Positions 24 through 56,860 of a stretch of DNA of 64,000 nt are shown piece by piece. The notes beneath the pieces were generated by a model that saw nothing but the letters and a program-made list of their open reading frames with translations, was not told where the DNA came from and did not search any database. Position numbers and translations under genes: made by a program. The DNA comes from Candidatus Eiseniibacteriota bacterium. GTDB taxonomy: Bacteria > Eisenbacteria > RBG-16-71-46 > CAVPCR01. The stretch covers positions 512,001 to 576,000 of the forward strand of contig CAWGMA010000002.1 in NCBI GenBank assembly GCA_963823555.1. The letters are read 5' to 3'. Position 1 is the first letter of the stretch. The number at the start of each line of letters is the position of its first letter.

Positions 24-1358
24 ATGCGACTGCTTGCCGCCCGTTCTTTCCGCGGCGCTTCCGGCTCCTTCCGTGTCCCGCCGCCTCTCGCGCTCCTGGT
101 CATCCTCGCTCTCACTCTCCCGGTCGCAGCCGGGGCCGCCACCTACATCGTCAAGCCGGATGGAACGGGGGATCTTCCCACCATAGAAGCTGCTGTCGCC
201 GTCGCGTCACATGGGGATGTGATCGAGCTGACCGACGGCGTCTTCACCGGTGCCGGGAACCGCGACATCGACTACGCCGGGAAGGCGGTCACCATTCGTT
301 CACAGAGCGGCGATCCAGCAGCTTGCATCATCGATTGCGAGACTTCCCTCAATGCGCCGCATCGAGGATTTCTGTTTCAGAGCTCCGAGACGGCTGCCTC
401 CGTGCTCTCTGGAGTCACCATCACCAACGGTGGGAACGTCGACTGGTTCGATCCCCTTGGTTACGCGGGAGGGGCCATTTACTGCCAGGATGCGTCACCC
501 GCTATCGTCAACTGCTGGCTTATCGGCAACGGCGCCCACGCTGGGGGAGGTATCTACTCGTCCGGAGGATCACCCCAGATCGTGGACTGCAAGATCGAGA
601 GCAACTCGGCCACACACGCCCTCGGGGGCGGAGGCGGTGGCGGTATTCTGTGCGCGGGCGGGGCTCCCATCATCCGCAGTTGCACGGTCGTCCTGAACAG
701 CACGGGTGCCAACTTCGTCGGCCATGGCGCCGGGATCCATATCGATCACTCGGCGGCCGTCGTCGAGGACTGTGTTGTTGCCGGTAACTTCGGTGACGGC
801 AGCGGGGGAGGCATCGCCTGTTCATTCAGCGACCTGGAGGTCGTGATCTCCCGCTGCGTCGTGAGCGGAAACATGGCCTACTGGCAGGGTGGGGGCCTAT
901 CCGCCCGGGGCCCGGTGCGGATCGAGCACTCCACCCTCGCCGGGAATTTCTCTGCGGGTATCGACGGTGGCGGCGGCGTCGCCGTCCGTCAAGCCCATGT
1001 CGAGAACACGATCGTCTGGAACAACTGCACTCACGATGGCGTTGCGAATCAAATCTCCGTGTCCGATGCAGTCACGTTGGAGTGCAGCGCGGTCGATCCC
1101 AACGGCGTCGCCGGACCAGGGACCGTGACCTACATGGGTGACAATGTCTTCACGGACCCGCTGTTCTGCGCTCCTGCCCAGTGTTCCGATCAGGGTGGAA
1201 CCACGGAAGGCGACTATTCGATCGGCGAGAGCTCCCCGTGTGCCCCGGCCAATTCACCAGGAACTTGCGGCCTTATCGGAGCGTTGTCGGCGGGGTGTAC
1301 CAGTACGGTCGAGCACGCCACCTGGGGTGAAATCAAGGGGCGCTACAGGACCCGATAA
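24..1358 (+). CDS. Secreted right-handed parallel beta-helix repeat protein (Pmp-like GGAI/GGGI repeats) with C-terminal TWGxIKxxY tail
   Basis: GGAGG RBS just upstream; hydrophobic signal peptide ending ...VAAGA; repeated 'N.A..GGGI.C' units; DPLFC...CGLIGALSAGC cap followed by VEHATWGEIKGRYR. Confidence 0.85.
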   Translation: MRLLAARSFRGASGSFRVPPPLALLVILALTLPVAAGAATYIVKPDGTGDLPTIEAAVAVASHGDVIELTDGVFTGAGNRDIDYAGKAVTIRSQSGDPAACIIDCETSLNAPHRGFLFQSSETAASVLSGVTITNGGNVDWFDPLGYAGGAIYCQDASPAIVNCWLIGNGAHAGGGIYSSGGSPQIVDCKIESNSATHALGGGGGGGILCAGGAPIIRSCTVVLNSTGANFVGHGAGIHIDHSAAVVEDCVVAGNFGDGSGGGIACSFSDLEVVISRCVVSGNMAYWQGGGLSARGPVRIEHSTLAGNFSAGIDGGGGVAVRQAHVENTIVWNNCTHDGVANQISVSDAVTLECSAVDPNGVAGPGTVTYMGDNVFTDPLFCAPAQCSDQGGTTEGDYSIGESSPCAPANSPGTCGLIGALSAGCTSTVEHATWGEIKGRYRTR

Positions 1359-7375: not shown

Positions 7376-8011
7376 CTAGAACAGCTTGCCGGTGAGGATC
7401 GTCACGTAGTCCTTGAGGAAGATGACGCGCTGGACGAGGAGAGCGACACGGCCCATCACCGTGAGACCGAACCCGGCGCCGAAGCCGACCATCAGCGTGT
7501 AGATGCCGACCCGCGACGCGGTGCCGAGAAGTCCGGTGTGGTGCTTGGAGAAGAAGAAGTAGGAGAGCGAGCAGACGAGACCGACCAGGGCGAGGAAGAA
7601 GTTGAGCCCGCCGAGCGACGCCGTCACCGGGCGGATGGTGCCCTCGACCTGCAGGAAGACTCCGGTCTTGAAGGCCAGCGGGATGAAAACACCGGTCGAG
7701 ATCCCGATGTAGAAAGCGAGCGCGTACCGGGAGAGCCAGCCCTGGCGCGGCGAGAGACGGAACCACATGAGCACGCCGAGGGCCACCGGGATCAGATAAT
7801 GCCACTGGTGATGCTGGGCGATGGGCACCCACACCTTGTCCCAGAAGCTGGTCCAGAAGAGCAGCATCGTCCAGTAGCCGGTGGTGATGCCGACCCATAG
7901 CCGCTCCACGAACTTGTAGATCGGGTTGTCGCCGATCAGGAACGAGAAGATGGCGAGCGTGACGAAGGCGGCCAGCGTCTGCCAGGCGAGAACGTCCCAG
8001 GTCGGTTCCAT
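7376..8011 (-). CDS. Uncharacterised integral membrane protein (about 6 TM), 4th gene of membrane operon
   Basis: Almost entirely hydrophobic helices; FSFLIGDNPIYKFVE, LSYFFFS, GFGAGFGLTVMGR; 4-nt gap to upstream gene. Confidence 0.8.
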   Translation of the reverse strand: MEPTWDVLAWQTLAAFVTLAIFSFLIGDNPIYKFVERLWVGITTGYWTMLLFWTSFWDKVWVPIAQHHQWHYLIPVALGVLMWFRLSPRQGWLSRYALAFYIGISTGVFIPLAFKTGVFLQVEGTIRPVTASLGGLNFFLALVGLVCSLSYFFFSKHHTGLLGTASRVGIYTLMVGFGAGFGLTVMGRVALLVQRVIFLKDYVTILTGKLF

Positions 8012-8015
8012 ATTC

Positions 8016-8876
8016 CTACCTCGCCCCCATGGCGCGCTTGCGCGCCCGCCGCTGCGCCACGTAGGCGATGTTGGTGAGCACCATGAACACGATGATCACG
8101 AGGTGGGTCGTCATCTGGTAGGGCATCCCGCGCGAGCCCTGGCCACGGTGTCCGGTGAGCATCTCGTACTCGGCGGCACCCTTCATGCCCGGGATGAGCC
8201 CGAAGATCTGCCCGGACTGGAGATAGGGGTAGTAATCGGAGGCCATGACGCCCGTCACCCCGAGGGCGACGGGGACCCCGTACTTGGCGTTGCCATAGGT
8301 GATCCACATGTCGGCGACGTTGCCGCCGGCGAGCGAGACCACCCCCTTCACGTTCCGGTAGTTGTGGATGTCCTCCATCATGGGGATCGAGTCGACCGGC
8401 GTGCCGTAGTAGTCGGTGGGGAACGGCACGCGGAAGTCGGTGCCCATGGCGAGGATGGTGATCGCCGGGTAGGGCTTGTAGCCGAGGAAGGCGTAGTCGA
8501 TGTTGCGCTCTTTGCCCTCGTCCGTGGCCACGCGCACGATCAGCTCCTCGGCCATCGCCGGTCCGAACTGCGAGAGCGCCGTGATGACCACGCGCGCCCC
8601 CCGCTGGAAGGCCTGGCGGAGGATGGCCTCCGCCATCGGGTGGAGCTCGGCGAGCGTCGAGGGGTCGTAGTCGATGGCGAGGAAGAGGTTGTCTCCCGGC
8701 TCGAGCGCCTCCACGAACTCGTAGACGTCCCGGACCTCGCTCGAGATGCCGGTCGGAACGCTGAAGCGCAGCACCGCCGGGAGGAGAACGGCGACCCCCA
8801 GGATGAAGTAGATCCAGCGGCGATCCACCACCAGCATCTTGTCGTACCAGCGAGAAGTCTCGGGGCGCGCTTCCAT
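8016..8876 (-). CDS. Uncharacterised membrane-anchored protein (TM - soluble alpha/beta domain - TM), 3rd gene of operon
   Basis: DRRWIY + TM, AIDYDPSTLAELHPM, YYPYLQSGQIFGLIPGMKGAAEYE, C-terminal TM; GGAG RBS. Confidence 0.8.
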   Translation of the reverse strand: MEARPETSRWYDKMLVVDRRWIYFILGVAVLLPAVLRFSVPTGISSEVRDVYEFVEALEPGDNLFLAIDYDPSTLAELHPMAEAILRQAFQRGARVVITALSQFGPAMAEELIVRVATDEGKERNIDYAFLGYKPYPAITILAMGTDFRVPFPTDYYGTPVDSIPMMEDIHNYRNVKGVVSLAGGNVADMWITYGNAKYGVPVALGVTGVMASDYYPYLQSGQIFGLIPGMKGAAEYEMLTGHRGQGSRGMPYQMTTHLVIIVFMVLTNIAYVAQRRARKRAMGAR

Positions 8877-8897
8877 CGGGTTCTACTCCTCCACCAC

Positions 8898-9521
8898 CTA
8901 GTCCCGGCCCATGTAGGAGCTCTCGATGCCGAGCAGGATCTTCATGCTGTAGCTGATGGCGCCCAGAGCGACACCGATGATGATGGCGCGTTTAGCGGCC
9001 ATGTTGGGTACGGCGAGGATCCAGCGCACCACTTCCGAGTTCCAGGTCGAGAGCGGCTCCGGCAGCGGGATCAGCCGCAGCATGACCACGAAGGCGGTCA
9101 ACAACAAGATCGCGGCGAGCACGGTGCGCACGCGGAATGCCCGGTAGGCGGCGCTCGCGATGTAGAAGGCGAGCATCGAGAACAGGGTGGCCTGCGCCGG
9201 GACCAGGACCCACTGGAAGAGGTTCATGAAGAGCGTGCCCGACTCGAAGCTCTCGCGCCGGAGCCCGGTCACGACCATGACCAGGAAACCGATGATGGTG
9301 GTCGCCGAGTAGAACCGCTCCTTGCGATCGTGCTGCGCCTTGTTCCAGGTGTTGCGGAGGAGCGAGAAGATGCCGATCGGGAGGGCCAGGATACCGATCA
9401 CGATCACGAAATCGTTGGCGTAGGTGAACAGGAACTCCGAGAACGGGTGCGGCACGAAGTACTGGATCACCATGATCAGGCCGGCGACGAAGACGAGGAA
9501 CAGCGGAATCTGCCTCTTCAT
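8898..9521 (-). CDS. Uncharacterised integral membrane protein (5-6 TM), 2nd gene of operon
   Basis: Hydrophobic helices; ATLFSMLAFYIASAAYRAFR, WILAVPNMAAKRAIIIGVALG, KILLGIESSY. Confidence 0.8.
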   Translation of the reverse strand: MKRQIPLFLVFVAGLIMVIQYFVPHPFSEFLFTYANDFVIVIGILALPIGIFSLLRNTWNKAQHDRKERFYSATTIIGFLVMVVTGLRRESFESGTLFMNLFQWVLVPAQATLFSMLAFYIASAAYRAFRVRTVLAAILLLTAFVVMLRLIPLPEPLSTWNSEVVRWILAVPNMAAKRAIIIGVALGAISYSMKILLGIESSYMGRD

Positions 9522-9562
9522 CGCTCATGCATCCTGGTTGAGCCCATTGTTGCTCCGAGTCG

Positions 9563-10837
9563 TCATACGGCGTGCACGAGGCGCGCGATGATGTTGGAGC
9601 CGAAGAACGTGTAGGCGGCGACCCCGACCACGAGCAGGGTGAGGATCACGATCTTGGCCAGGTCCTGCGCCTTGAGCGGTCCCATGAGCACCGGTTCCTG
9701 CGACAGGTAGGCCGAGGCCGCGTACAGCTCCTCGCCGATCAGCGTGTAGTCGGTGGCGGCGACGAAGAACGGAATCTGCGCCAGCTGGTCGGTGCCCGAG
9801 ATCTGGATCGAGCCGGTGATGCTCCCCGCCTCGGCCAGGAGCAGGCTCTCGGCGTGGAAGACCCCCATGTAGAAGTTGGTCGCCGTCCGTTCGCGGAGCA
9901 TGAGCCCGTTCACCGCCGCCACGTACGGGAACTGCATGGCCGAGATGTAGAAGATGTTCTCCGGGCGGTAGACGTCGGGACGTCCCGCCTGGAGATAGGC
10001 CTCGCGCACGGTCTCCTGCGCCATGGCCATCATGACCGGATCGTTCACCGGCACCAGGATCGGCGTCTGGTACTCGGCGGTGCGCCGGGCGACGCGGGCG
10101 AGGATGGTGTAACCGGCGATGGTGGCGATGTCGCCCGCGGTGCCGGTGCCGAGCACGAAGAGGATCGGACGGCCCATCTCGGTGGCGCGGCCGATCGCCT
10201 CGTCGACGGCCGAGATGCCCGCGATCGGGCGGATGAAGAGCTGGCGCCCCTTGCGGGCGGACTCGATGAAGCCGACGGTGGCGATGGCGAAGAGCACGAC
10301 CGCAATCAGGACGTTCAGTTTCCCGGTGTGGAACCAGTTGCCGGCGGCGATGCCCGTGACCGGAGCGGTGAAGGGGGAGACGCCGCCGTCGGCGGCCCGC
10401 CCGCGAATCCGGAACGCGCGCGGCTCGCCCACGGGCACGAACGTGGGATTGGGTTGGCCCTCGAGCGAGGCTTCTTCCGATTCGTGGTTGTAGGTGGTGG
10501 TTCCGCGCGGCGCGTTGCCGACGAGCACCCACGCCTCGTCCGGCGCGTCGGGCGCCGGCGCCATCCACACCTCGTAGGTGAGGAGCTCCGCGTCGTCGGG
10601 GGAGAGCGTCCAGCGAAGGGCGATGCCGTGTCCGTTGTCGTTGGGGGCGTCGCGGGCGGTGAGGGAATTCGGCGGGCTGAAGGCGATCGGCGGGGGTGGA
10701 TCGGTGATGTCCGCCGCGGCCGGATCGGGTTCGACGGCCTGGTCCTGTGCGAAGAGTCCCGCCGGCGCCGGGAGCAAGAGCCCGATCCCGACCGCCAGCG
10801 CTACGCCGAGAACGGCGAGTGTTCGGAGCGTGGGCAC
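9563..10837 (-). CDS. Secreted/membrane protein: FN3-like domain + DUF6754-like domain, 1st gene of operon
   Basis: GGAGGAG RBS, GTG start, signal peptide; LTARDAPNDNGHGIALRWTLSPDD (FN3-like); TM; IRPIAGISAVDEAIGRATEMGRP, AESLLLAE, QIPFFVAATDYTLIGEELYAASAYL; C-terminal TM. Confidence 0.8.
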   Translation of the reverse strand: MPTLRTLAVLGVALAVGIGLLLPAPAGLFAQDQAVEPDPAAADITDPPPPIAFSPPNSLTARDAPNDNGHGIALRWTLSPDDAELLTYEVWMAPAPDAPDEAWVLVGNAPRGTTTYNHESEEASLEGQPNPTFVPVGEPRAFRIRGRAADGGVSPFTAPVTGIAAGNWFHTGKLNVLIAVVLFAIATVGFIESARKGRQLFIRPIAGISAVDEAIGRATEMGRPILFVLGTGTAGDIATIAGYTILARVARRTAEYQTPILVPVNDPVMMAMAQETVREAYLQAGRPDVYRPENIFYISAMQFPYVAAVNGLMLRERTATNFYMGVFHAESLLLAEAGSITGSIQISGTDQLAQIPFFVAATDYTLIGEELYAASAYLSQEPVLMGPLKAQDLAKIVILTLLVVGVAAYTFFGSNIIARLVHAV

Positions 10838-24110: not shown

Positions 24111-27100
24111 TCAACGAATGAGCACCATCCGCCGCACCTCGCTGGCGGCGCCCGCATCCAGACGGTAGAAGTAGACACCCGAGGCCACCGCGCGGCCCCG
24201 GTCATCGGTGCCGTCCCAGATGGCGGTGTGCGGTCCGGCGGATTCCGAGTCGCTGTGCACGAGAGCGCGCACGCGCCGGCCCATTGTGTCATAGATATCG
24301 ATGCGGACACCACCCGGTGCCGGCAGCGTGTAGCGGATCAGGGTCCGTGGGTTGAACGGATTGGGAATGTTCTGTCCCAGCTCGAACCCGGGCGCCGGTG
24401 CCGCGCCCTGATCTCCGACCCCCACGACGCCCTCGAGCGCGCAGCGCAGCACGCGCCCGAACCCCGGCACGCCGTTGAAGGCGGTCCCGGCCACGATGCA
24501 CGCGCTGGTGGCGGCGAGGGCGTGGACCGCCTCGGCCGCATCGATGGCGCCGCCGTACGCCTCCCAGTCGCCGAATCCGGCGGGGCCGGGCGTCATGCGA
24601 TAGACCCGCGTCGCGCTGCCGCCGCGATCGACCTCGACGCCGGCATAGACCTTCCCCCATCGATCGCGCGCCAGGCTCTCGACGGCGCGCACATCCGGGT
24701 CCGGGAACTCGGTGGTCTTCGTCCACACCGTGCCGAGCGGCTCGGTGACGTAGACGAAGCCCGCATCGCTCTCCTCGACGGCCGCATAGAGCCACTCCGG
24801 GGTCGGGAGCAGCGCGTACACCGATCTCACATCGGGTTCGAGCCCGGACATCGGCAGCCACTCGATGCCGTTATCGGAGCGCAGGATCGAGCCGGCCTGC
24901 CCCTCGTCGAAGCTCACTCCGGCGAAGACGAGGCCCGAGCCCCCGCGGGCGAGAGAGTGCGGGTACATGTCCTCGCCGAGCTCGCCCCAGGGCTGCCAGC
25001 TCGAGCCGGAATCCATCGTGCGCAGGATGAAGCCGCCCAGATTCGCTTCGGGCCGGCCGTAGGCTGCGGCCAGCCACTCGCCGGGGCCGACCGCCACGAG
25101 CGCGGTGACGATTCCCTCGGGGATCGTGAAGACGATCTCCCAGGTTTCGCCCTGATCACCCGAGCGGTAGATGACTCCCGGCCGGGAATCGCCGAGATCC
25201 GCCCAGCCGGCGGCCAGGAGCGCCTGCGGTTCCGCCTGGCCGATCGCCGTGATGGCGCGGCAGCCGGTGAGGGTCCCGAGTGACTCCCAGCTTGCTCCGG
25301 AATCGGTGGAGCGCATGACCTGACCGCGCGTGGTGATGGTGTCGATATGCGTCATGACCGCGGCCAGGATCGACCCCGGCGCGGGCTCGATCACGTGATT
25401 GACGGTGATGGCGGCATCCATCGCCGCGGTCTCGGCCCAGGTCGGCGGTTGATCGATGAGCGGCGCTGCGGGTGGTGGGGCGGAATCGGCGCGATCGCGC
25501 CCGGCGGCGATGGCGCTCCTCCAGCCGGCGGGTCGCACGGTCGGGCCGGTCGCCAGGGGCTTGTCCATCGCCCCGGCGAGATACTCCGGCACATCGAGGC
25601 TCAACGAGGGATCGCCGTAGTAGTTGAAGACCCGGATCCCGCGATCGAGGCCATGCATCGCGGCGTGATGGAGCATGGCGTCGTAGAAGGCCTGGCCGAC
25701 CTGCATGTGGTCGTCGAGCAGGTCATCGTAGAAGTAGTAGCTCAGGGACTGGCCCCCGCCGTCCGTGGGCGATGCCCACCGTTCCTTGTATTCGGAGCCT
25801 GCTGTCGAGCCGATCACCGCCGGCGCTCCGTAGCGGAGGTAGTTCTTCAGCATGGTGCCCGAGCGTGGAGTCCGGATCAGGTAGCGGGAGCGGAGCGGCG
25901 AGGCATCGGCGAGCGAGTCGGGCCCGAAGATGGGCGCGGTCGAGCAGCCGTTCAGGAACACCACCGCCGACACCGGGTGAGCGGGGATATCGCCGGCCCG
26001 GCTGAATTCCGTGTAGCCCACTTCCCCGAGCTTGTAGTCCGGTCGCTCGTTGGGGATGTGGTCGTCGATCCAGCGCTGACCGGACATGCCTCCAGGATGC
26101 CCGTGCGCGACACAGCTCACGAGAGCCTGGCGCTCGAGGGTGCAGCGCGAGCGGTAGGATTCGGTGCTGAGGGGCGCCGTGCAGGGGTGGATCGAGGGTG
26201 CGAGGCCACCCTTCTCGTAGAGCGTCTCGACGCTCCAGGGACCGAGAAAGTCCTGCCGCAAGAGCTCGCCCAGGTCGCCCCCGTCGGTCTGCATGTCCAT
26301 GAGCCCATGGGCCAGGAGGGCCTTTCGCCTCCACGGCCCCGAGCTCGATTCGAAGCTGGTGATGTTGAAGCAGATGGTCTGGACGACCGCCTCGTCGTTG
26401 AAGGGGATGCGGCCGACGAGGAGATCGGGCACCGGGTCGAACCCGTCCTCCAGGAACTCCCCCCAGCGGCCGTCGTCATCCTGGTCCCAGTCCGCCACGT
26501 CGAGCTTGGCGTAGTAATAGTCGGTCCCGTAGCCGAGAAGACCGCCGGGATTCCCGTCGGGGTAGAGCCGGCGCATGGGGAGCTCGTCCACGTCGCCGAT
26601 CAGGAGCACATGGCTGATCTCCTGGTAGTGATCCGCGAGGTAGTTCCAGATCTTCTCGGCGTCATCGGCGCCGGGATACGTGCCATAGATCCACTCGAGC
26701 ACCACCTGATAGGCGTCGTAGCCGATCAGGCTCTTCCAGTTGAGGAGCACCAGCACTTCCTCGGCGAGATCGATGGAGGCGATCACGGCGAAGTCGCCGA
26801 GCGGATAGGCGGCATCGAAGTAGATGCGCCAGTAGCCCGACACGCGGAAGTCGCTCCAGGCCACACAGGGCTCGACCGGCTTCCAGGGGTTGGCGGCGAT
26901 CGCCGGCCGCTGACCGGGGACGGCGGCCCGGTCCTCGTTGATGATCTCGGCGTCGGCCCATGCCTGCGGCGCGGCGCAGTCCGCCCAGGTGTAGACGATG
27001 TTGAAGTCGCGCCAGAAGGCGGCGTGAATGCGCCCGAACGACTCGCTCACGGTCAAATCGACGAGGTCTTCGGCGGCAGCCGTGTAGGGCATGAGCGCGT

Positions 27101-28181
27101 AGCTCCAGCTCGCGCCGGCGTTCGTGCTCGCATAGCATTCGATGTCCGTGTTCTGCGCTGAGCGCAGGCGCGTGTAGGCGACAGCGACGGCATCGTCGCC
27201 GTTGGTGGCCGCCACGCGCGGGTGGTACTCGTCAGCGGCGGATCCACCGATCAGGAGCTCGCTGTCCCAGTTCGATCCCAGGTCGTTGCTGCGGCGCACG
27301 TGGACATCGCGATCCCCCGGAGCGTAGAGGCGCGTGAAGGTGACGTAGAGGTTGTCGCCGCCATAGTCGATGTCGGGGCGATCGAGCTCCGCGATGTCCT
27401 GGGCGAGCGTGGCCGGTGCCGTCCAGCCGTCGCCGAAATTCACGGTCCGGCTGAAGCGCAGATCGCTGGCATCCGGCTGATCGACGAGCCGGGCCCGGAC
27501 ATACGTGACGTAGGCGTACCAGTAGTCGTATTCCGGGTTGTCCACACAGATCTGCGGGTTGGCAACGCCGAGCGGATTGGCTTCGATCAGGACGGCCGCG
27601 GAGCCGCCGCCGTCGAGATCCTCCCAGTAGGCATGGATCGCCGAGCTATTGGTGCCGCGGCCGTACTCGTACACGATGAGGAGGCGATCGTGCACCCCCT
27701 CGCCGATGGCGATCGCCGGTCGGGTCGGATCCTGAGCGGTGACGAGACTGAACTCGTAGGTCCACATGAACCCGCCGTCGGGTGATTTGTAGATGTCGAG
27801 GTAGTTGCTCGTCTGCTCCTCCACCACGACGTAGAGCGTGCCGTCGCTCTGGATGGCCATGGCGGGTGATGCGGACGCGCGGCTGGGATCCGAGACCAGC
27901 ACGTCGGCACGCCAGCCGCCGCCGCGCTGGAGGAGCTCGGTGCGTACGACCCGCTCGACCTGGGAGGCGGGGAGGGCGGTTCCGGCGCTCTCATTCATGA
28001 GACCCGGATCGATGGCGACGGCGGCGGCCACGTCGCCCGCCCTCTTGGCGGCGCGGAGTCGCTCGATGTGAGCGCTCCCGGTCGGGCCGTGGCCGGCACT
28101 CGCCCGTGGAGCGAGGGGAGCGAGGAGAGCGAGGAGAGCGAGGATGCACCCGACCACAAAACAGGTCCGCGACAAAGCCAT
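24111..28181 (-). CDS. Large secreted multidomain protease: BNR/sialidase-like propeller + peptidase C25 (gingipain-like) + second propeller + FlgD-Ig/T9SS-like CTD
   Basis: GGAGG RBS, signal peptide; S.D.G..W BNR motifs; LLIGD, TDYYY, DLLVGRIP, AHGHPG (His), NGCST (Cys), YYGDPSL; CTD QNIPNPFNPRT...IYDTMGRRVR...WDGTDDRG..VASGVYFYRL. Confidence 0.85.
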   Translation of the reverse strand: MALSRTCFVVGCILALLALLAPLAPRASAGHGPTGSAHIERLRAAKRAGDVAAAVAIDPGLMNESAGTALPASQVERVVRTELLQRGGGWRADVLVSDPSRASASPAMAIQSDGTLYVVVEEQTSNYLDIYKSPDGGFMWTYEFSLVTAQDPTRPAIAIGEGVHDRLLIVYEYGRGTNSSAIHAYWEDLDGGGSAAVLIEANPLGVANPQICVDNPEYDYWYAYVTYVRARLVDQPDASDLRFSRTVNFGDGWTAPATLAQDIAELDRPDIDYGGDNLYVTFTRLYAPGDRDVHVRRSNDLGSNWDSELLIGGSAADEYHPRVAATNGDDAVAVAYTRLRSAQNTDIECYASTNAGASWSYALMPYTAAAEDLVDLTVSESFGRIHAAFWRDFNIVYTWADCAAPQAWADAEIINEDRAAVPGQRPAIAANPWKPVEPCVAWSDFRVSGYWRIYFDAAYPLGDFAVIASIDLAEEVLVLLNWKSLIGYDAYQVVLEWIYGTYPGADDAEKIWNYLADHYQEISHVLLIGDVDELPMRRLYPDGNPGGLLGYGTDYYYAKLDVADWDQDDDGRWGEFLEDGFDPVPDLLVGRIPFNDEAVVQTICFNITSFESSSGPWRRKALLAHGLMDMQTDGGDLGELLRQDFLGPWSVETLYEKGGLAPSIHPCTAPLSTESYRSRCTLERQALVSCVAHGHPGGMSGQRWIDDHIPNERPDYKLGEVGYTEFSRAGDIPAHPVSAVVFLNGCSTAPIFGPDSLADASPLRSRYLIRTPRSGTMLKNYLRYGAPAVIGSTAGSEYKERWASPTDGGGQSLSYYFYDDLLDDHMQVGQAFYDAMLHHAAMHGLDRGIRVFNYYGDPSLSLDVPEYLAGAMDKPLATGPTVRPAGWRSAIAAGRDRADSAPPPAAPLIDQPPTWAETAAMDAAITVNHVIEPAPGSILAAVMTHIDTITTRGQVMRSTDSGASWESLGTLTGCRAITAIGQAEPQALLAAGWADLGDSRPGVIYRSGDQGETWEIVFTIPEGIVTALVAVGPGEWLAAAYGRPEANLGGFILRTMDSGSSWQPWGELGEDMYPHSLARGGSGLVFAGVSFDEGQAGSILRSDNGIEWLPMSGLEPDVRSVYALLPTPEWLYAAVEESDAGFVYVTEPLGTVWTKTTEFPDPDVRAVESLARDRWGKVYAGVEVDRGGSATRVYRMTPGPAGFGDWEAYGGAIDAAEAVHALAATSACIVAGTAFNGVPGFGRVLRCALEGVVGVGDQGAAPAPGFELGQNIPNPFNPRTLIRYTLPAPGGVRIDIYDTMGRRVRALVHSDSESAGPHTAIWDGTDDRGRAVASGVYFYRLDAGAASEVRRMVLIR

Positions 28182-28429
28182 GGCAGCCTCCTGCGGCAGC
28201 CGTTGGGGACGGATGCTCGACATCAAGTACAACAGCATCTTGTTGACGCGTCAATTGAATCGAGCCGAATGGCAGATGCACAAATCTAAAATCCTCATTG
28301 CAGGATGCGCGTCTCTCCTCGTATCGTCTGTCCGGTTCTGGCCGCTGGGCAGGCAAGGCTCGGTGCCTCTTGGCGTGGCCGCGCCGGAAGTCTAGGCTCT
28401 TCGGGTAGCTTGGTGGAGGAGGCTCGACC

Positions 28430-40515: not shown

Positions 40516-40624
40516 ATGAAGGTACGCGGGCCGGCGGGGGATGGCAACTTGGGAATGGTGGACTGCTCGGGGCAGCGGCGGGATGTCCCTCCGCTGCCCG
40601 AATGTTTCCGCTGGAACGGGAACC

Positions 40625-42775
40625 TCACTCGAGGAGGACGATCCGCAGGCTCTCCACCTGATCCCCGACGTGGAGCCGGCCGAAGTAGATCCCGGAGGGC
40701 AGTCGCTGGCCGCCGTCGTTCCTTCCATCCCAGCGCACCGCATGGACGCCCGGCTGCCGCGATTCGTTCAGGAGACGGCGAACGAGACGACCGTCGGCGC
40801 CGTAGATGTCGAACTTGACGAGAGCTTGATTGCCGGTCGTATCGAGGTCGTAACGGATCTCGGCCGACTCGCGGAACGGGTTCGGAACGCTGGGGCCGAG
40901 GAAGTGGCTCCGAGCCGCATCGACAGATTGTGGGTTGCTGGCAAGTGGAGCGCAGCCGATGGGAAGCGCCCCGACGAGGCCGCAGCCGGGGGCATTCGCG
41001 CATGACGAACCCTCGGCGAGGTGAAAGTTGACGTTGTCGGGATCGCAGAAGAGCGGCGCGTAGGAGAAGTTGCCGTTCACGCCGTTCTGCCCGGCGGCGC
41101 AGTCGATCCAGTCGCCGCCCAGGTTGCCGAAGATGTCCGAGCAGGAAAGCGTCAGGCTGCTCGTCGAATCACAGAGGACCGACCCGCCCGCGGTGCTGTA
41201 GGAGACGATGCATCGATCGAGCGCCGTGGTCGCCTCGGAGGTGCTCGCCACTCCGCCCCCGCCGAGGGTGGCCGCGTTGCCGTAGAAGGTGCAGGACTCG
41301 ATCGTCGGGTTCGATCGGATGTAGCTGGCGATTCCCCCTCCGGTCTCCTGGCTCGTGTTGTGGGCGAAGATGCTGAGCGTGATCGTGGCCCACGAACGAT
41401 AGCAGGAGAGGCCGCCACCAGGACCTGCGGTCGTGTTCCCCTCGAACAGGCAGTTGCGGACGGTCGGATCCCGGAAGCTCACGTTCATGCCGCCGCCGTT
41501 CGAGGTGGCGTGATTGCCGCGGAAGGTGCAGCCCTCGACCAGTCCTCCCGAGTCGCCGAAGGAGAGCCCCCCGCCCCGCATTCCCGAGTTGTTCTCGAAG
41601 ATCGAGCTCGTCACCTCGATGGGAGAGCTGCCGATGTGGGACCCGCCCCCCGGCCCGCCGGCGGTGTTGGCGGTGAACGTGCAGCCGTCGACAGTACCGA
41701 CGCAATTGTTGGCGTTCAGGCCACCGCCGCCGCCATTGGTGGCATCACAGTCCGTGAAGGAGCATCCGACCAGGGCCAAACCCGAGAGGTTGAAGTTGAT
41801 CCCGCCTCCCTGGGTAGCGGAGTTTCCCGTGAAGGTGCAGTTCTCCAAGTATGTGTTCGATTCGAAGAGTTCAGCACCGCCTCCTCCAGCGTATGACGAT
41901 TGATTGCTCTCGAACAAGCAATTGGTGATATCACCGGAAGACAGCGACCAGTGTATCCCTCCTCCCGCCGTGTCGGCCTGGCACGCTCGGAAGGTGCAGT
42001 CCTCGAGTGCAGGCACTGAACGGGCGAAGAGGGCGCCACCTCCTGTCGACAATGCCGAATTGGCCTCGAATGCACATCGGGTTAACACTGGATATCCATC
42101 TGCGAACACGGCTCCACCACCACGCAAGGCGGAGTTTCGTTCGAAGACACAGTCGGTCAAGACAGGATTTGACTGTGAGCTGTGGATCCCGCCGCCCGCT
42201 TCAAGGGCATGGTTGTCCGTGAACACGCAGCCAACGAGGATGGGATTCGACGCGTGAGCACTGAAGCCGGCCCCTGCCACGAGGGACTCGTTTTCCTCGA
42301 ACCGGCAGTTGATCAACGTGGGCCCATATTGGCAGAAGCCACAATGCGCCGCTGTCCCGTCGCCGACCGGATCGGTCGAGACATTCCTCCAGAACCTGCA
42401 GTTTTCGACAGTCACCTCAGAGTAGAGGATGTCCAGTGCGTTCCTGGCCGCACCGGTGATCGTGAGTCCCTTGATCAGGCTAGGCTGATCAAGGGACAGG
42501 CACCAGATCCCATTGAAATTGCCGGCGACATCGATCGTGACGCAGTCGGCCTCACCGGTCTCGCTGCGTAGCTCGATCCCCGGTTCCATTCGGATCGAGT
42601 GCTCGTAGTAGGTGCCGCACGCGACAACGACGACATCTCCGGGCAAGGCGGCGTCGATGCCGGTCTGGATCGTCGGATACTGGCTGGGGACGTGGATCGT
42701 CGTGGCCCCGGCAGGAAGCGAAGAGAGAGCTAGCGCCAAGACAGCAAGCGACGAGATGAGCGCCGGTCGGTCCAT
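40625..42775 (-). CDS. Secreted parallel beta-helix repeat protein with FlgD-Ig/T9SS-like CTD
   Basis: AAGGAGG RBS; signal peptide; TIHVPSQYPTIQ; more than 12 'C.F..N.A..GGG' repeats; CGLVGALPIGC; PNPF...IYGADGRLVR...WDGRNDGG..LPSGIYF. Confidence 0.88.
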   Translation of the reverse strand: MDRPALISSLAVLALALSSLPAGATTIHVPSQYPTIQTGIDAALPGDVVVVACGTYYEHSIRMEPGIELRSETGEADCVTIDVAGNFNGIWCLSLDQPSLIKGLTITGAARNALDILYSEVTVENCRFWRNVSTDPVGDGTAAHCGFCQYGPTLINCRFEENESLVAGAGFSAHASNPILVGCVFTDNHALEAGGGIHSSQSNPVLTDCVFERNSALRGGGAVFADGYPVLTRCAFEANSALSTGGGALFARSVPALEDCTFRACQADTAGGGIHWSLSSGDITNCLFESNQSSYAGGGGAELFESNTYLENCTFTGNSATQGGGINFNLSGLALVGCSFTDCDATNGGGGGLNANNCVGTVDGCTFTANTAGGPGGGSHIGSSPIEVTSSIFENNSGMRGGGLSFGDSGGLVEGCTFRGNHATSNGGGMNVSFRDPTVRNCLFEGNTTAGPGGGLSCYRSWATITLSIFAHNTSQETGGGIASYIRSNPTIESCTFYGNAATLGGGGVASTSEATTALDRCIVSYSTAGGSVLCDSTSSLTLSCSDIFGNLGGDWIDCAAGQNGVNGNFSYAPLFCDPDNVNFHLAEGSSCANAPGCGLVGALPIGCAPLASNPQSVDAARSHFLGPSVPNPFRESAEIRYDLDTTGNQALVKFDIYGADGRLVRRLLNESRQPGVHAVRWDGRNDGGQRLPSGIYFGRLHVGDQVESLRIVLLE

Positions 42776-42930
42776 GTGTCCTCCTTGGGACCAGGTGGGA
42801 ATCCGGCCTCGTCGTCGGGCGGCGGGATGGGGTGCGGCGCTCGGCAAGCGAGGGAACTGCTAGCCAATCGGTGATGATCATACGCCACTCCCCGCCGCCT
42901 CCGCAAACGAGAGCGGTGGGGCGGTCGTGG

Positions 42931-43566
42931 TCAATACTGGCTCTTGATGCGGCCCCAGGTGACGGGGGTGACCGGGGCGAGCGGATAGCAGGCATCGTGA
43001 CCGCCGGGACCGACGCAGGCCCGCCCGCGGCTCGATGGCGGAATGGGCGTGACCTCGAAGGTCGGGGAGAGCACGTGCGTACCGTTGGGAAAGGCGGATT
43101 CGATGATCTCGATGCATCCCTGATCGACGGCGTAGAACGTCATCCGGCCGAAGGCCACGAGCGCGCCCCCGGTGACGACCTGGTCGAAGGGAAGCGTGAG
43201 CGAACCACGAACTGGCCCCCACGGCGGTCCTGGTGGCAACTCGTAGAGGGATGTCAAGCAATCCCACAGCCCGAAGCCGAAGGCCCAGGAGTCCGGCACC
43301 TCGAAGGCGCACTGGACGCCCCAGACCGAGTCGTAGTTCCGGAGGAGCACGAGCACGCAGGCGGTCTGCATCCCGGAGAGATCCGTGACCGGGAGCGTCG
43401 ACTCGCAGTCCACCCCGTCGAGATCCGCCTGGTTGCAGGGAGCGAGAACGAGGTCGACCGCGTGGAAGAGGATCGTCGTGTTCTCGTTCGCGGCGAGGGC
43501 CGGGCTCGCGATGAAGAGCGCAGCGAGAGCCACCGAGAGCGCGGCGCTGTGGGAGGTTCGGGTCAT
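42931..43566 (-). CDS. Secreted Cys-rich hypothetical protein with C-terminal TWGxIKxxY tail
   Basis: GGGAG RBS; signal peptide ...ASPALA; ends APVTPVTWGRIKSQY. Confidence 0.8.
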   Translation of the reverse strand: MTRTSHSAALSVALAALFIASPALAANENTTILFHAVDLVLAPCNQADLDGVDCESTLPVTDLSGMQTACVLVLLRNYDSVWGVQCAFEVPDSWAFGFGLWDCLTSLYELPPGPPWGPVRGSLTLPFDQVVTGGALVAFGRMTFYAVDQGCIEIIESAFPNGTHVLSPTFEVTPIPPSSRGRACVGPGGHDACYPLAPVTPVTWGRIKSQY

Positions 43567-43706
43567 GGTGCTTCTCCCGGCGCCGTCGGGCGCCGAATAG
43601 AGCTTACACCCCGGGGCGCCTCGGGCAAGAGCGCTCTCCGGATGGTTTCCGCTGAAACGCGGCTTGCAGGAGCCAGCGCCCCTGGGAGAAGCGCCATGGG
43701 CCCGGG

Positions 43707-43730
43707 TCCGCTATCATATCCGCTATCATA
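43707..43730. repeat. 12-bp perfect tandem duplication TCCGCTATCATA x2 in a divergent intergenic region
   Basis: tccgctatcata tccgctatcata, about 50 nt upstream of the 43781 ORF. Confidence 0.9.
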
Positions 43731-43780
43731 TTCGTTGAGTGTGTGCCTTCGCTGCATGAGATCACAGGTGGGTTGACGGG

Positions 43781-44017
43781 ATGCGAATCGAGATCCTCGG
43801 CGAGATCACAGAGATGGAGACGATAGCGATAGGGCGGCGGATCCGCGAGCTGCCTCGTCTCCGGAGGGTGTACGGTCCGGGGCGCTGGCGCAAGCGGAGA
43901 GGGATTGCTCGAGTCCGGGTTGATGGTGGCCCTGCGTTCGTGGCGGAGGTACACTGGTATGAAGCCTTCGGCATCGGGCGGAAGGAGCTCAAGATCAAAC
44001 GAATTGTGGATCGATGA
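43781..44017 (+). CDS. Small basic conserved hypothetical protein (AExHWYE family), putative toxin
   Basis: 78 aa; GRWRKRRG, AEVHWYEAFGIGRKELKIK; ATGA overlap with next gene. Confidence 0.75.
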   Translation: MRIEILGEITEMETIAIGRRIRELPRLRRVYGPGRWRKRRGIARVRVDGGPAFVAEVHWYEAFGIGRKELKIKRIVDR

Positions 44018-44253: not shown

Positions 44254-44273
44254 TCTTGGAGCAAGGAGTGTGC

Positions 44274-44756
44274 ATGACCGGCCGGCATCTGCCTGAGTCC
44301 ACGCGGGCCCGAGGTTGGGCCCTTGCCCTCATCGTGGCCACTGGCCTCCTGGCCCTCCTCCCGTCCGTCGCCGCCCGGGCCGCCACGATCCACGTCCCCG
44401 CCGATCGGCCCTCGATCCAGCTCGCGATCGACGCCGCGGTGGCCGGCGACACCGTCCTCGTCGCCCCCGGGACCTATTACGGAGCCGAGAATCAGAACAT
44501 CGACTTCCGCGGGCGCGACATCGTCCTGCGCTCCGAGGCGGGACCCGAGGCGACGATCATCGACTGCGAGAACATCGATCGCGCCTTCTACCTGCGCGCG
44601 GGGGAGACCAACTCGGCGGTCATCGACGGCTTCTCCGTTCTCCGCGGCATGGCCACCTACCTCGACCCCTACGGTGTCGTGGGTGGCGCCGTGGTCTGCG
44701 CCAGCTCCTCACCCACGATCCGTAACATGATCCTGGGGGTTTGCGGCGCGGGGTGA
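44274..44756 (+). CDS. Secreted beta-helix protein, N-terminal part (interrupted by in-frame TGA at 44754-44756)
   Basis: AAGGAG RBS; signal peptide; TIHVPADRPSIQ...GDTVLVAPGTY...GPEATIIDC; same frame continues after the TGA. Confidence 0.75.
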   Translation: MTGRHLPESTRARGWALALIVATGLLALLPSVAARAATIHVPADRPSIQLAIDAAVAGDTVLVAPGTYYGAENQNIDFRGRDIVLRSEAGPEATIIDCENIDRAFYLRAGETNSAVIDGFSVLRGMATYLDPYGVVGGAVVCASSSPTIRNMILGVCGAG

Positions 44757-46202
44757 GCGGGGGCCTGGGATGGCGGTGCCATCGCCCTCTACAACTCGAG
44801 CGCCAGGCTCATCGACTGCCAGATCTCCGGAAATGCCGCGGAGGAGAAGGGCGGCGGCCTCTACTGCGAGGGCGGTGCCGTCGAGCTCGCCGGCTGCCGC
44901 TTTGTCGAGAACGTGGCGGGCGGCAATGTGGGATGGGGCGGGGCTGTCTATGCCGAGTCCTGCGATCTCACCATCACCGACTGCACCTTCGCCGGGAACC
45001 AGGTCGAGAGCTGGAGCTGTGATGGATGCAGCTACGCGGGCGGCGGCGCCATCTACGCCGAGCTCGGGACGGCGAGCCTCACTCGCTGCCTCTTCCTCGA
45101 CAACGCCGCCGTATCCGAGAACATCGGGAGCGGGAACTTCGCCGAGGGGGGTGCTGCCCTGCTCCGGGTCGGCGGCCTCACCCTCACCGAGTGCGTCTTC
45201 CGCGGCAACGAGGCGCGGAGCACCTCCGATCCCCAGCTCTCGGCCTGGGGCAACGAGGCCTACGGCGGCGCCCTGGCCTGCCGCTCCGCCGTTCTCGACA
45301 ACTGCGTCTTCGAGAACAACGGCGTCCTCTGCGATGGCAACCCCGACGGCAACATCGGCGCCGGGGGCGCGCTCCATGCCGCCGATGCGATCGTGACCGG
45401 ATGCCTCTTCATCGATAACGCCGTGGTCGGCGGCGGCAGCCGGCCGGATGGCGCCGTCCGGTCCCTCCGCGCCGAGGATCGCGCCGAGGGCGGCGGCGCC
45501 GCGGTCGCGGGTGGCTCGCGCTTCACGCGCTCGACCTTCAGCCGCAACTCGGCTGCCACGGGGGGCGCTGCGATCCACCTCCGCGACGGCGGCGTGGTGC
45601 TGATCGACAACACGATCGTCGCCTTCTCGCAGACGCCCGCCGCCATCCTCTGCAGCGGGGGCACCCGGCCCGAGCTCACGTGCTCCGATGTCTTCGGCAA
45701 CGCCGGCGGCGACTGGGTGGGCTGCATCGCCGACCAGGCCGGCTCGAGCGGCAACCTGGCCGCCGATCCGCTCTTCTGCCAGCCCGCGATCGGCAACTAC
45801 ACGCTCGACGCCGCCTCTCCCTGCGCCGAGGACAACGCGCCCGCGTCATGCGGTCTCATCGGGGCGCTTGGAGTGGGTTGCGGTGTCGTCGCCGTGCCGG
45901 CCGGGGACTCGCCCGCGGCACCTCGACTCGTGCGCGTCTACCCCAATCCTCTCGATGGCGACGCGGTCCTCGAATGGCGTTCCGATGCAGGCGGCGCGCA
46001 GCACGCGCGGCTCTACGATCTCGCCGGCCGCGTCATCCTGGCCCGGGATCTCGGATCGCGCGCGGCGGGGACGCATCGCCTGGCGTGGAGCGATCTCACT
46101 CGCGGCGTCTCGCTGCCTGCCGGCGTCTACTTCCTCGCGATCGATCCGCCCGGTGGCAGCACCAGCCGCGAGCAGGCGCTGCGCGTGATCGTGACCAGGT
46201 AA
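44757..46202 (+). CDS. Secreted beta-helix protein, C-terminal part with CTD
   Basis: Frame open from 44757 (DGGAIALYNSSARLIDCQISGN...); GGAI repeats; ADPLFC, CGLIGALGVGC, VYPNP...LYDLAGR...LPAGVYFL. Confidence 0.8.
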   Translation, partial: AGAWDGGAIALYNSSARLIDCQISGNAAEEKGGGLYCEGGAVELAGCRFVENVAGGNVGWGGAVYAESCDLTITDCTFAGNQVESWSCDGCSYAGGGAIYAELGTASLTRCLFLDNAAVSENIGSGNFAEGGAALLRVGGLTLTECVFRGNEARSTSDPQLSAWGNEAYGGALACRSAVLDNCVFENNGVLCDGNPDGNIGAGGALHAADAIVTGCLFIDNAVVGGGSRPDGAVRSLRAEDRAEGGGAAVAGGSRFTRSTFSRNSAATGGAAIHLRDGGVVLIDNTIVAFSQTPAAILCSGGTRPELTCSDVFGNAGGDWVGCIADQAGSSGNLAADPLFCQPAIGNYTLDAASPCAEDNAPASCGLIGALGVGCGVVAVPAGDSPAAPRLVRVYPNPLDGDAVLEWRSDAGGAQHARLYDLAGRVILARDLGSRAAGTHRLAWSDLTRGVSLPAGVYFLAIDPPGGSTSREQALRVIVTR

Positions 46203-46215
46203 CGGGAAGGACGCC

Positions 46216-54462: not shown

Positions 54463-55716
54463 CTATTTCATCAGTAGTACCCGAACCGACCCCTCAGCCG
54501 TGAAGGGCGCGAGCCTGAGGAAGTAGACGCCGGAGGCGAGTTCGGTTCCCGCCGTGAGATCACTCCAGGCAATTTGCTGTCCGCCGGGGCCTGGGCTCAT
54601 GAGTTCGCGTTCGAGGACGAGCCTGCCCGCGAGGTTGTAGAGCTGCGCCATGCGCGGACCCGCACCCGTGTCATCCCAGGAAACGAACCCCTGCCCGGAG
54701 AGCGGATTGGGAAGGACGCGAACCACGGGACGTGCCGCGGGGGCATCCGCCTCCGCAACGGCAGTCGCCCCACATCCCACCGGCAGGGCGCCGATGAGGC
54801 CGCATTCTCCCGGGGCATGCTCTGGCGCGCAGGGCGAGTTGGCATCGATGGTGTAGTTGTGGTCGGCCGGCAGGCAGAAGAGCGGGTCGGCCGAGAAGTT
54901 GCCGTTGACTCCGGACTGGCCGGCAAGGCATCCCACCCAGTCGCCGCCCGTGTTGCCGAAGACGTCGCAGCAGGAGAGAACGGGGAAGGCGCCGCCGGCA
55001 CATTCGACGACGCTTGCGAGCATCGAGAAGGCGATGATCGTGTTGTCAAAGGTGATCGTGCCGGGGTCGCGCATGTGAACCGCGGCTCCCGATGTCTGTG
55101 CCGAGTTGCCACTGAAGGTGCACCCGATGAAGTGCGACCCGGAGGTAACGGCGCCGCCGCCGCCGACAGGCCTCCTCCACGCGTGCGGCGCGCGCGGTCG
55201 AAATGCCCGGGATCCCGGTCTCGGCCCCGAGACCGAGTTCTTGACGAAGAGGCAATCGACGGCGAACGCGACCTCGGAGTAGAGCCCGCCTCCTGCTGCT
55301 GTATTACCTTCTGGATTACCCAGACTCTCCGCTGAGTTGCCCTCGAACCGGCATTCGTTGATGAGGGCGGATTCGCAGTAGAGCCCTCCGCCGTAGGCAT
55401 CATTGCCCCAGTAGGAGTCCGGCCCCGAGATGCTCCTGGCCTCGTTGTTGCTGAAGAGACAGGAATTGAGCAAGGCGCTGTCTCCCAGTGCGGCTCCGCC
55501 CCCGCGTGATACGTTGTAAGAGTTGTCGTTGCTGGCCAGCGCGAGATTGCCGACGAAGTCGCAGCGAGTCAGCCGTACGGTCCCAGATGCGTACAAGCCA
55601 CCCCCGTCGGCCAGCGAGAACTGGTCATCGCCGTAACTCTGAACTCTGTTGTTGCGAATGACGCAGTCAGTCATTGCGAGGGAACCGCTTGACGCACACG
55701 CCGCCACCGACTCCAA
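54463..55716 (-). CDS. Beta-helix protein, C-terminal part with CTD (frameshift near 55695 from upstream part)
   Basis: GGGLY repeats, SADPLFC, CGLIGALPVGC, LPNP...LYNLAGRLV...LASGVYFL; close paralog of 44274-46202. Confidence 0.8.
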   Translation of the reverse strand: MESVAACASSGSLAMTDCVIRNNRVQSYGDDQFSLADGGGLYASGTVRLTRCDFVGNLALASNDNSYNVSRGGGAALGDSALLNSCLFSNNEARSISGPDSYWGNDAYGGGLYCESALINECRFEGNSAESLGNPEGNTAAGGGLYSEVAFAVDCLFVKNSVSGPRPGSRAFRPRAPHAWRRPVGGGGAVTSGSHFIGCTFSGNSAQTSGAAVHMRDPGTITFDNTIIAFSMLASVVECAGGAFPVLSCCDVFGNTGGDWVGCLAGQSGVNGNFSADPLFCLPADHNYTIDANSPCAPEHAPGECGLIGALPVGCGATAVAEADAPAARPVVRVLPNPLSGQGFVSWDDTGAGPRMAQLYNLAGRLVLERELMSPGPGGQQIAWSDLTAGTELASGVYFLRLAPFTAEGSVRVLLMK

Positions 55717-56860
55717 AGTCTATCCACCCGGAGAGGTTGTCCTCGATCAAGCACCCGGTGATCTCCGCAGTGCTGTCGATGATGATGATGCCGCCGCCGT
55801 TGTGCTCGGCACGATTTCCGCTGACCACGCAGTCCACGATTCGGGGCGTCCCGCCCTCGAGCGCGATCGCTCCGCCACCGAAGGCGGTGTTCTCCGTCAA
55901 GATGCACTTCTGTATGGTCGGCGATGCACCCATGCAGGAGATCGCGCCGCCTTCATTGAGAGGCCACTCGAAGCCCTGACCGCCTCTCATCGTGAAGCCA
56001 TCGATGATTGCGGCGTTGGTCTCTCCCGAATGCAGGTAGATGGCACGACCATCTCCCTGGCAGTCGATGATTGTTGCCTCGGGTCCGCTCTCCGATAGGA
56101 GGACTATGTTCCGGCCGTAGAAGTCGAGGTTCTTGTTGCCGGTACCCGCATAGGTGCCAGGTGCTACGAGGACCGTATCACCGCTCCCGGCGATGTTGAT
56201 GCCCAGCTGCAGGGTCGGTTGCTCTGAGGGAACGCGGACGGTGATGCCGCGGCGCTTCAGGCCAAGGCTGAAATCTCCGCCAGCCGCGGCCGCGACGAAG
56301 TCGGCATTTGGATCGGGCACGTTGCACTGGCCGCTGTAGTTGCTGCCCCAGGCGACGATGCGACCATCGGACTTGAGGCCGAGGCTGTGACCCTCGCCGG
56401 CGGCTATCGCAACGAATCCGGCGTTCGGTGATGGGGGATCGCATGAACCGGAGAAACAGCCGCCCCAGCCGATGATGCTACCGTCAGCCTTCAAACCCAG
56501 GCCGTGGTAGTAGCCTGCGGCAATCGCAACGAAACCTCCATTCGGTGTGGGGACCTCCATCTGATTGTAATCGTTGTTCCCCCAGGCGATGATCCGCCCA
56601 TCCGTCTTGAGGCCGAGGCTGAATGACTCGCAAGCAGCAACGGCGACGAAATCGGTGTTTGGCGAGGGAATGTCCCGCTGCCCCCAGATGTTGTCTCCCC
56701 AGGCGACGATCTGGCCATCGGACTTGAGACCGAGGCAGTGCTTCTCCCCGGCGGCGATGGCGATGAAGTCGGCGTTGGGCGGGGGAATGTCGCAGACCCC
56801 GAAGCTACAGGACCCCCAGACGACGACCGTGCCGTGGAGGCCCGCCAGAGGCAAGAACAA
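55667..56860 (-). CDS. RCC1-like repeats (5 x 39 aa) + beta-helix N-terminal part; 5' end unclear
   Basis: Repeats 'IVAWG.N..GQ..VP.PN..FVAIAAG..HSLGLKSDG', then VRVPSEQPTLQ...GDTVLVAPGTY...GPEATIIDC; no signal peptide or clear start. Confidence 0.75.
   Translation of the reverse strand: MFLPLAGLHGTVVVWGSCSFGVCDIPPPNADFIAIAAGEKHCLGLKSDGQIVAWGDNIWGQRDIPSPNTDFVAVAACESFSLGLKTDGRIIAWGNNDYNQMEVPTPNGGFVAIAAGYYHGLGLKADGSIIGWGGCFSGSCDPPSPNAGFVAIAAGEGHSLGLKSDGRIVAWGSNYSGQCNVPDPNADFVAAAAGGDFSLGLKRRGITVRVPSEQPTLQLGINIAGSGDTVLVAPGTYAGTGNKNLDFYGRNIVLLSESGPEATIIDCQGDGRAIYLHSGETNAAIIDGFTMRGGQGFEWPLNEGGAISCMGASPTIQKCILTENTAFGGGAIALEGGTPRIVDCVVSGNRAEHNGGGIIIIDSTAEITGCLIEDNLSGWIDFGVGGGVCVKRFPRND

Follow-up and report, generated by a model that had tools for sequence, protein, structure and literature searches.

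The left end of the stretch of DNA that was analysed (64,000 nucleotides from a Candidatus Eiseniibacteriota genome, called here the window) is occupied by a gene at 24..1358 (+) encoding a 444-residue beta-helix protein that carries a signal peptide, matches the Pfam Beta_helix family and ends in a TWG tail. The C-terminus of its product reads CGLIGALSAGC-TSTVEHATWGEIKGRYRTR-stop, and three parts can be told apart in it: the CGLIGALSAGC cap (1266..1298, +), which is common to 35 beta-helix paralogs in the genome; the linker half of the tail, TSTVEHA (1299..1319, +), which resembles the small-V-acidic linker preceding the C-terminal domains (CTDs) of type IX secretion system (T9SS) cargo and, judging from this sequence, is a candidate cleavage region; and the helix half, TWGEIKGRYRTR, which together with the stop codon spans 1320..1358 (+) and contains a motif that is helical in the models of two other tailed proteins. 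For comparison, three further beta-helix paralogs in the window bear the same cap and continue into a CTD, of the FlgD_ig type in the first: 40625..42847 (-), 44256..46202 (+), whose reading frame is broken by a TGA that ends at 44756, and 54463..55716 (-), a 3' half whose 5' half lies in another frame at 55667..57016. The original prediction had described these four CGL-capped paralogs, the one at 24 tailed and the other three running on into a PNP...G[VI]YF domain, and the sequence is as described. All three indeed have that domain, but its assignment as a FlgD-Ig/T9SS-like CTD is backed by a score above the FlgD_ig cut-off in the 40625 gene (35.5 bits versus 27), whereas the CTDs of the 44256 and 54463 genes fall under the TIGR04183 cut-off (22.1 and 18.2 versus 23). 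The in-frame TGA in 44256..46202 and the frame change at about 55.7 kb in 54463..57016 reflect either assembly error or pseudogenes; the public sequencing runs over 40500-57200 gave short, mixed contigs only.

The second tailed gene of the window lies at 42931..43566 (-) and encodes a signal-peptide protein of 211 residues with a predicted cohesin fold (model pLDDT 85; Z 11.3 and rmsd 2.7 over 122 aligned residues versus 2vo8). Its product ends in APVTPVTWGRIKSQY-stop, with the tail encoded at 42931..42978, so that an unrelated secreted protein does end in the same kind of tail, as had been claimed; in the model, this tail is a separate, low-confidence helix (pLDDT 46-57). The window also contains a divergent C25 peptidase with a CTD (24111..28238, -), one of the 21 C25 matches of the genome, and the finding is flanked by two paralogous clusters, each with four genes for uncharacterised membrane proteins, one upstream of the window (-4040..-997) and the other at 7376..10837 (-).

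The genome (G000: 4.62 Mb in 4 contigs, 92.5% complete; coordinates on its contig C1 are given below for genes outside the window) was searched with the motif [TS]WG.[IVL]K over its 73,655 stop-to-stop frames. There were 108 matches, 99 of them at most 9 residues from the stop and 107 at most 30, compared with 3 matches in reversed frames and between 1 and 11 for five permuted motifs, so the motif is common near C-termini, as had been expected; a position-matrix scan added one more strong variant of the tail and one weak one. A length of some 13 residues had been proposed, and the tail is indeed short and C-terminal but a little longer, its consensus running over about 17 residues ([TV]-[AP]-V-E-[PAS]-[SAT]-[TS]-W-G-x-[IV]-K-x-x-[YF]-R). 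Tailed genes, among the 3,517 called by our own codon-based caller, are small, with a median of 224 aa (93 called) against 629 aa for CTD genes (237 called), and 1 of the 108 tailed frames exceeds 600 aa, compared with 134 of 261 CTD frames from which 85 aa had been removed. By a permissive signal-peptide heuristic of our own, used in place of SignalP, 83 of 93 tailed genes, 197 of 237 CTD genes and 1030 of 2376 other genes were positive, in line with the anticipated enrichment of the tail on signal-peptide proteins; most of the tailed genes that were negative look like gene fragments.

With 148 CTDs of the same genome as seeds, a profile was made that matched 265 frames, 261 of them terminally; the 108 tailed frames gave no match, as would follow from the mutual exclusivity of the tail and the T9SS/FlgD CTD that had been proposed. 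Every one of the 35 CGL-capped frames ends in one or the other: 17 have the tail and 18 a CTD. When the tails were cut off and the passengers clustered (101 proteins, seven being too short and left out), 60 sequence clusters were obtained, which substantiates the recurrence of the tail on unrelated passengers; 37 of them have a CTD-bearing paralog, and in 6 the alignment with that paralog runs as far as the junction, so that tail and CTD have been exchanged at one place. Since the tail sits exactly where related proteins have their CTD, it is likely to be a miniature T9SS address label. The passengers that could be named contain CHRD, DVUA0089/PPC, DUF4397, lamin-tail or beta-helix domains, and most have no match at all (19 of 91 tailed database proteins match Pfam); CHRD and DVUA0089 are families that occur on PEP-CTERM proteins as well. 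Of the phylum's tailed genes, the best conserved one encodes the lamin-tail protein at C1:312559-313191; it is kept in 5 of 5 examined genomes of a family with 1-5 tails (L122, L123, L125, L126 and L132), and the five loci share no neighbours of this gene.

The tail itself is made of two halves, the linker [TV]-[AP]-V-E and then WGxIKxx[YF]. The linker half has a counterpart ahead of the CTDs: [AG][VI]x is present in 148 of 215 CTD linkers versus 53 and 61 in upstream windows, and a tail-linker matrix scores the CTD linkers at a mean of 3.18 versus -0.63 and 0.11 upstream (n=215), above all of 200 shuffles (mean 2.23, maximum 2.77), with a peak 17-22 residues ahead of PNP. For Prevotella intermedia, a passage of PMC11969387 gives a cleavage consensus of PT/GI with a small residue at +1, and according to a passage of PMC4804311, PorU cleaves without sequence specificity. 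Because the residue preceding V is Pro in 45 of the 108 tails and PorU is reportedly sequence-independent, this likeness argues weakly for cleavage. Two AlphaFold2 models show the WGxIKxx[YF] half as a helix, predicted to be basic and amphipathic, one face of which would carry W, I and Y/F. Over 9 residues its mean hydrophobic moment is 0.40; its net charge is +1 or more in 94 of 108 cases, and in 94 of 108 the W stands 8-11 residues from the protein end. No membrane segment was seen in the 108 tails, and only 2 of the 108 tailed proteins have a hydrophobic stretch of 19 residues at any place in their mature part.

These properties could suit a helix that binds the membrane or lipopolysaccharide directly, without a protein reader, given the hydrophobic moment and the net positive charge. 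However, W, G and K are fixed across several phyla, the sequence RRTWGSIKAMF of the Bacteroidota protein described below hardly varies while its domain is only 25-36% identical, and eight residues are short for a lone anchor. Lipid anchors seldom need such sequence specificity, and we consider direct lipid binding very improbable. Still harder to credit is a periplasmic quality-control or degradation tag for a C-terminal protease: the free, poorly ordered C-terminus of one model (pLDDT 46-57) would fit, but the tail swaps with an export domain, it also exists in internal copies, and no co-occurring protease was seen. As for known domains, the tails found no family match in Pfam, NCBIfam (73 tails) or the PDB sequences and no likeness to the CTD profile of the genome (hhalign probability 0.15%), and a piece of a CTD or a fragment of a known domain is rejected on these grounds. 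The motif is accordingly neither rare, nor scattered beyond the C-termini of what are mostly signal-peptide proteins, nor part of a described domain, any of which would have counted against the original prediction.

The genome encodes the core of a type IX system, with SprA at C1:1890241-1896771 (451 bits; cut-off 200), a canonical PorU-PorV pair at C1:701103-706555 (PorU 475 bits, cut-off 420; PorV family 191, cut-off 90) and at least six PorV-family barrels, besides the C25 matches mentioned above. GldM was not found in this genome, at its completeness of 92.5%, or in four others; the same model detects GldM in 37 of 151 Bacteroidota, and "motor-less" is used here as judged by GldM. As had been suggested, the tail was profiled across genomes for co-occurring transporter or peptidase families: in a mixed panel of 55 genomes, 2 of them Bacteroidia controls and 53 tail-bearing, 51 of the latter 53 proved to have both SprA and PorU. 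These were not found in two draft bins, both fragmented, G226 (6 tail matches, of which 5 were translated and are terminal) and G240 (1 match); misbinning may possibly account for these exceptions. In tail-bearing Bacteroidota, SprA was found in 5 of 5 and PorV, at an E-value of 1e-25, in 46 of 50, so that SprA, PorU (from the mixed panel) and canonical PorV are what is conserved in the tail-bearing genomes tested. All these co-occurrence counts rest on related genomes, and, because every tail-bearing lineage also has CTD cargo, the presence of SprA, PorV and PorU is explained without the tail. Elsewhere in the genome, an M6-like inactivated protease with a CTD (C1:176811-180811) adjoins a PorQ-like barrel and resembles NCBIfam NF052323, under the cut-off.

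The position of the tail, its recurrence on unrelated passengers, its exchange with the CTD at one junction and the co-occurrence with SprA, PorV and PorU are direct observations. The reading that we prefer, and to which we would give an even chance, is that the tail is a 17-residue C-terminal module that replaces the T9SS CTD and acts as a compact, helix-type export signal for a motor-less SprA-PorV-PorU machine. On this reading, the protein would first be exported by Sec through its N-terminal signal peptide; the core translocon or a PorV-family shuttle would then recognise the helix; passage through SprA would follow; and finally canonical PorU might cut the [TV]/[AP]-V-E linker, with subsequent anchoring or release. 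Confidence falls in that order. That the SprA-PorV-PorU core recognises the helix after Sec export seems to us modestly probable, while cutting of the linker by PorU is rather doubtful. We infer, in agreement with the original prediction, a C-terminal targeting or anchoring signal, supported by the exclusivity with CTDs and by the place of the tail at the C-termini of signal-peptide proteins.

A family of SnoaL/NTF2-fold lipoproteins (C1:1650359-1653512; P0156-P0195) bears on this reading in another way. The tail is present in 28 of its 40 homologs, where it is also found internally, after a duplicated domain, and as 2-4 tandem copies, which is odd for a single-use signal. An acidic stretch follows the lipid Cys in 22 tailed members, whereas 12 untailed ones start with C-I-F; such a stretch resembles the lipoprotein export signal of Bacteroidota. 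The model of one of these lipoproteins gives the tail high confidence (pLDDT 95) and shows V-E as a short strand; since 12 of 40 homologs do without the tail, the idea that it belongs invariably to the SnoaL lipoprotein fold was rejected. Because these copies are lipid-anchored and repeated, they speak for a binding ligand more than for a signal that is cleaved once. The tail could accordingly be an uncleaved docking ligand, whose helix would hold small modules on a periplasmic or surface scaffold or carrier in a dockerin-like manner, any export proceeding via a CTD-bearing partner. Besides the internal and tandem (x2, x4) copies on proteins that already have a lipid anchor, and the way in which tail, acidic stretch and C-I-F start are distributed over the family, the size limit on passengers and the frequent Pro before V would agree with docking. 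Yet tail and CTD stand in for each other one for one at the same junction, both in the 6 clusters and throughout the 35 capped paralogs (35 of 35), the W of the helix keeps its narrow distance from the protein end, and no scaffold candidate was found; on balance docking appears unlikely.

The tail might instead have its own branch, read by a second, PorU2-like sortase and/or an orphan PorV2-like barrel apart from the canonical PorV-PorU. Two genes made this worth weighing. One, at C1:349495-353712, is a second PorU with a dockerin-like gene and two tailed cohesin-like genes in its vicinity; the other, at C1:1490698-1491834, is a conserved PorV2-like barrel present in one copy, whose clade includes members from Latescibacterota, Coatesbacteria and Bacteroidota and is represented in 45 of 50 tail-bearing Bacteroidota. 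Orthologs of the second PorU are common in Eisenbacteria and their kin. Nevertheless, exactly one C25 peptidase, the canonical PorU adjoining PorV, is encoded in each of four Latescibacterota genomes that consist of a single chromosome and carry 32, 10, 25 and 17 tails, and the lack of a second PorU in these tail-rich genomes rules it out as a universal tail reader. PorV2 is likewise ruled out in that role, as it is absent from five tail-bearing Bacteroidota (one of them single-chromosome), whose 17 listed PorV-family genes belong to other clades, and as 29 of the 37 GldM-positive genomes, which have no tailed protein, do possess it. A dedicated PorU2/PorV2 branch is thus not tenable as a universal rule, and we regard such a branch as improbable altogether. 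A complex prediction for the PorV2-like barrel (29-row alignment) and the tail of the window gene (73-row alignment) scored 0.02 against a mark of 0.32, too low to bear on the question either way. A further candidate was a protein of about 1,100-1,150 aa with weak SprA likeness, encoded at C1:709866-713186 (L136:8866-12183) in a porU-porV-DUF5683-NHL-BamA-like cluster; it has no Pfam or PDB match and no solved relative, and was found in 62 of the 80 genomes searched, with several absences in common with PorV2. Its lack in three single-chromosome tail-rich genomes and five tail-bearing Bacteroidota, as well as its presence in 8 of 10 GldM-positive genomes, speaks against a dedicated pore. Two arrangements of genes were also observed: a 21-kb region of the genome (C1:332682-353712) that brings together the dockerin-like gene, tailed cohesin-like genes, two SurA-like isomerases and the second PorU, and a Coatesbacteria locus (L195, G245:C159) in which a PorU-like gene is directly followed by a PorV2-clade barrel, resembling the PorU2-PorV2 pairs of Bacteroidia.

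Beyond this genome, a DNA pattern that recovers 84 of its tails was applied to the phylum and matched 197 of 201 genomes, mostly with tens of copies and with 0-5 in one family, whereas the reversed pattern gave 0-2. The one near-complete genome without a match has a W-S variant, with 14 matches to a looser pattern (controls 4), of which 5 tails were translated and are all terminal. A stricter pattern found at least 121 loci over GTDB; among the matches listed, 113 are C-terminal tails, distributed over Latescibacterota, Eisenbacteria, Krumholzibacteriia, Coatesbacteria, Handelsmanbacteria and Gemmatimonadota, and the remaining ones listed include chance matches in Bacteroidia and Pseudoalteromonas. 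A similar tail may occur in Poribacteria. A tail profile search returned 719 clusters at 50% identity, and in the best 150 of the 719 the motif always lies within 12 residues of the end, the longest protein measuring 599 aa. In the full-text literature covered, which takes in few subscription journals, no published description of the tail motif, of the Rhodothermus marinus protein described below or of PorU2/PorV2 was found; the tail is a real, widespread and apparently undescribed C-terminal tag.

The 151 Bacteroidota had been searched with the tail pattern as a negative control, and 50 of them gave one recurring match, TWGS[IL]KA[ML]F or [TS]WGMIKE[ML]F (the 50 were classified by matched bases, and 22 of them confirmed by translation). 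It belongs to a protein of about 135 aa, made of a signal peptide, an FN3-like domain and the ending [ST]-x-V-R-R-TWGSIKAMF, in which RRTWGSIKAMF is nearly invariant and the FN3-like domain 25-36% identical. That domain is the module preceding the CTD in ordinary cargo, and therefore the tail again occupies the place of the CTD. Members with named sources come from Rhodothermus marinus (WP_012842694.1, D0MCX2), Rhodocaloribacter, Ignavibacteriales and Kapabacteria. Of the 82 genomes that have PorV or PorV2 but no GldM, 50 encode the tailed FN3 protein; none of the 37 with GldM does, nor any of the 32 with none of these. Among the 32 of 82 motor-less, PorV-bearing genomes without the strict pattern is one, G311, that carries a codon variant. 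The GldM-positive genomes probably form a single clade and, because the genomes are related, this distribution is perhaps one loss and not a statistic. A profile of the FN3 protein found no ortholog in the Eisenbacteria genome or its allies, and the neighbourhood of the Bacteroidota gene consists of housekeeping genes only.

Among known sorting systems, the T9SS type A CTD (TIGR04183, PF18962; here of the FlgD_ig type, PF13860) is like the tail in standing at the extreme C-terminus of signal-peptide proteins, on many unrelated passengers, at the same junction and behind a small-V/I linker, and the genome of the tail likewise has SprA, PorV and PorU. In contrast, that CTD folds, over 40-80 residues, into a beta-sandwich or a sheet of three strands, and the tail, of about 17 residues, is a predicted helix without a match to TIGR04183, PF18962 or PF13860 (73 tails), on small passengers only and in a genome in which GldM was not found. 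In the passages concerned, known T9SS signals are described as folded beta-structures of at least 40 residues, CTD binding burying about 1,850 square angstroms (PMC11969387, PMC10994853), and the short CTDs of Prevotella intermedia as having 40-55 aa (PMC11969387). Type B signals with their PorP/SprF shuttles, as set out in parts of PMC9143113 and PMC12618676, provide a precedent for a second class on one translocon, which is also what is proposed for the tail, and can stay uncleaved and barrel-bound; however, the tail matches no type B model (NCBIfam, Pfam; 73 tails), the tailed genes are scattered without a paired barrel gene, and both dedicated-partner candidates failed universality.

LPXTG, PEP-CTERM, GlyGly-CTERM and MYXO-CTERM share with the tail a short, C-terminal, many-to-one character and a basic end, and an analogy to PEP-CTERM and LPXTG had been drawn at the outset. 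It fails structurally, as these tripartite signals have a transmembrane segment between the motif and the basic cluster and the tail has none; the exosortase PF09721 was found in 1 of 5 tail-bearing genomes and not in G000. In the passages covered, a paper on tripartite signals (bioRxiv 10.1101/2023.06.07.544157) makes no mention of the motif. Dockerins, also short helical C-terminal modules on modular proteins, consist of a duplicated calcium-binding loop-helix repeat, while the tail is a single short helix without a dockerin match; and although the genome has a dockerin-like gene as well as passengers of cohesin fold, here the cohesin-fold proteins themselves bear the tail. The tail would work like a T9SS signal, yet it lies outside types A and B and is not tripartite.

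In its widest form, the reading of the tail as a type IX export signal would make it a third, helix-type class of T9SS signal, a linear peptide far shorter than known CTDs that would be read by a motor-less SprA-PorV core across several phyla. It would have been kept in Ignavibacteria, Kapabacteria and Rhodothermus on one FN3 protein, either a machine part or a standing client. In motor-bearing Bacteroidia it would have been lost, and in Eisenbacteria, Krumholzibacteriota, Latescibacterota and Coatesbacteria it would have spread to 10-100 small cargo proteins; this we put forward tentatively, as the less probable case. If true, each genome of these widespread uncultured phyla would gain about 100 so far hidden secreted proteins, mostly annotated as "hypothetical" at present, the type IX translocon would read a short linear helix and run without the GldLM motor, and the 17-residue tag would be a handy export handle. 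Rhodothermus marinus is cultured and genetic tools exist for it, and its copy (WP_012842694.1) makes a motif of uncultured bacteria testable at the bench. As a last observation, a tailed gene lies just upstream of pyrR/pyrB both in the Eisenbacteria genome (C1:377798-378346, cohesin-like) and in several Bacteroidota (the FN3 gene; L256-L258, L262 and L263), a shared position that is possibly due to chance.
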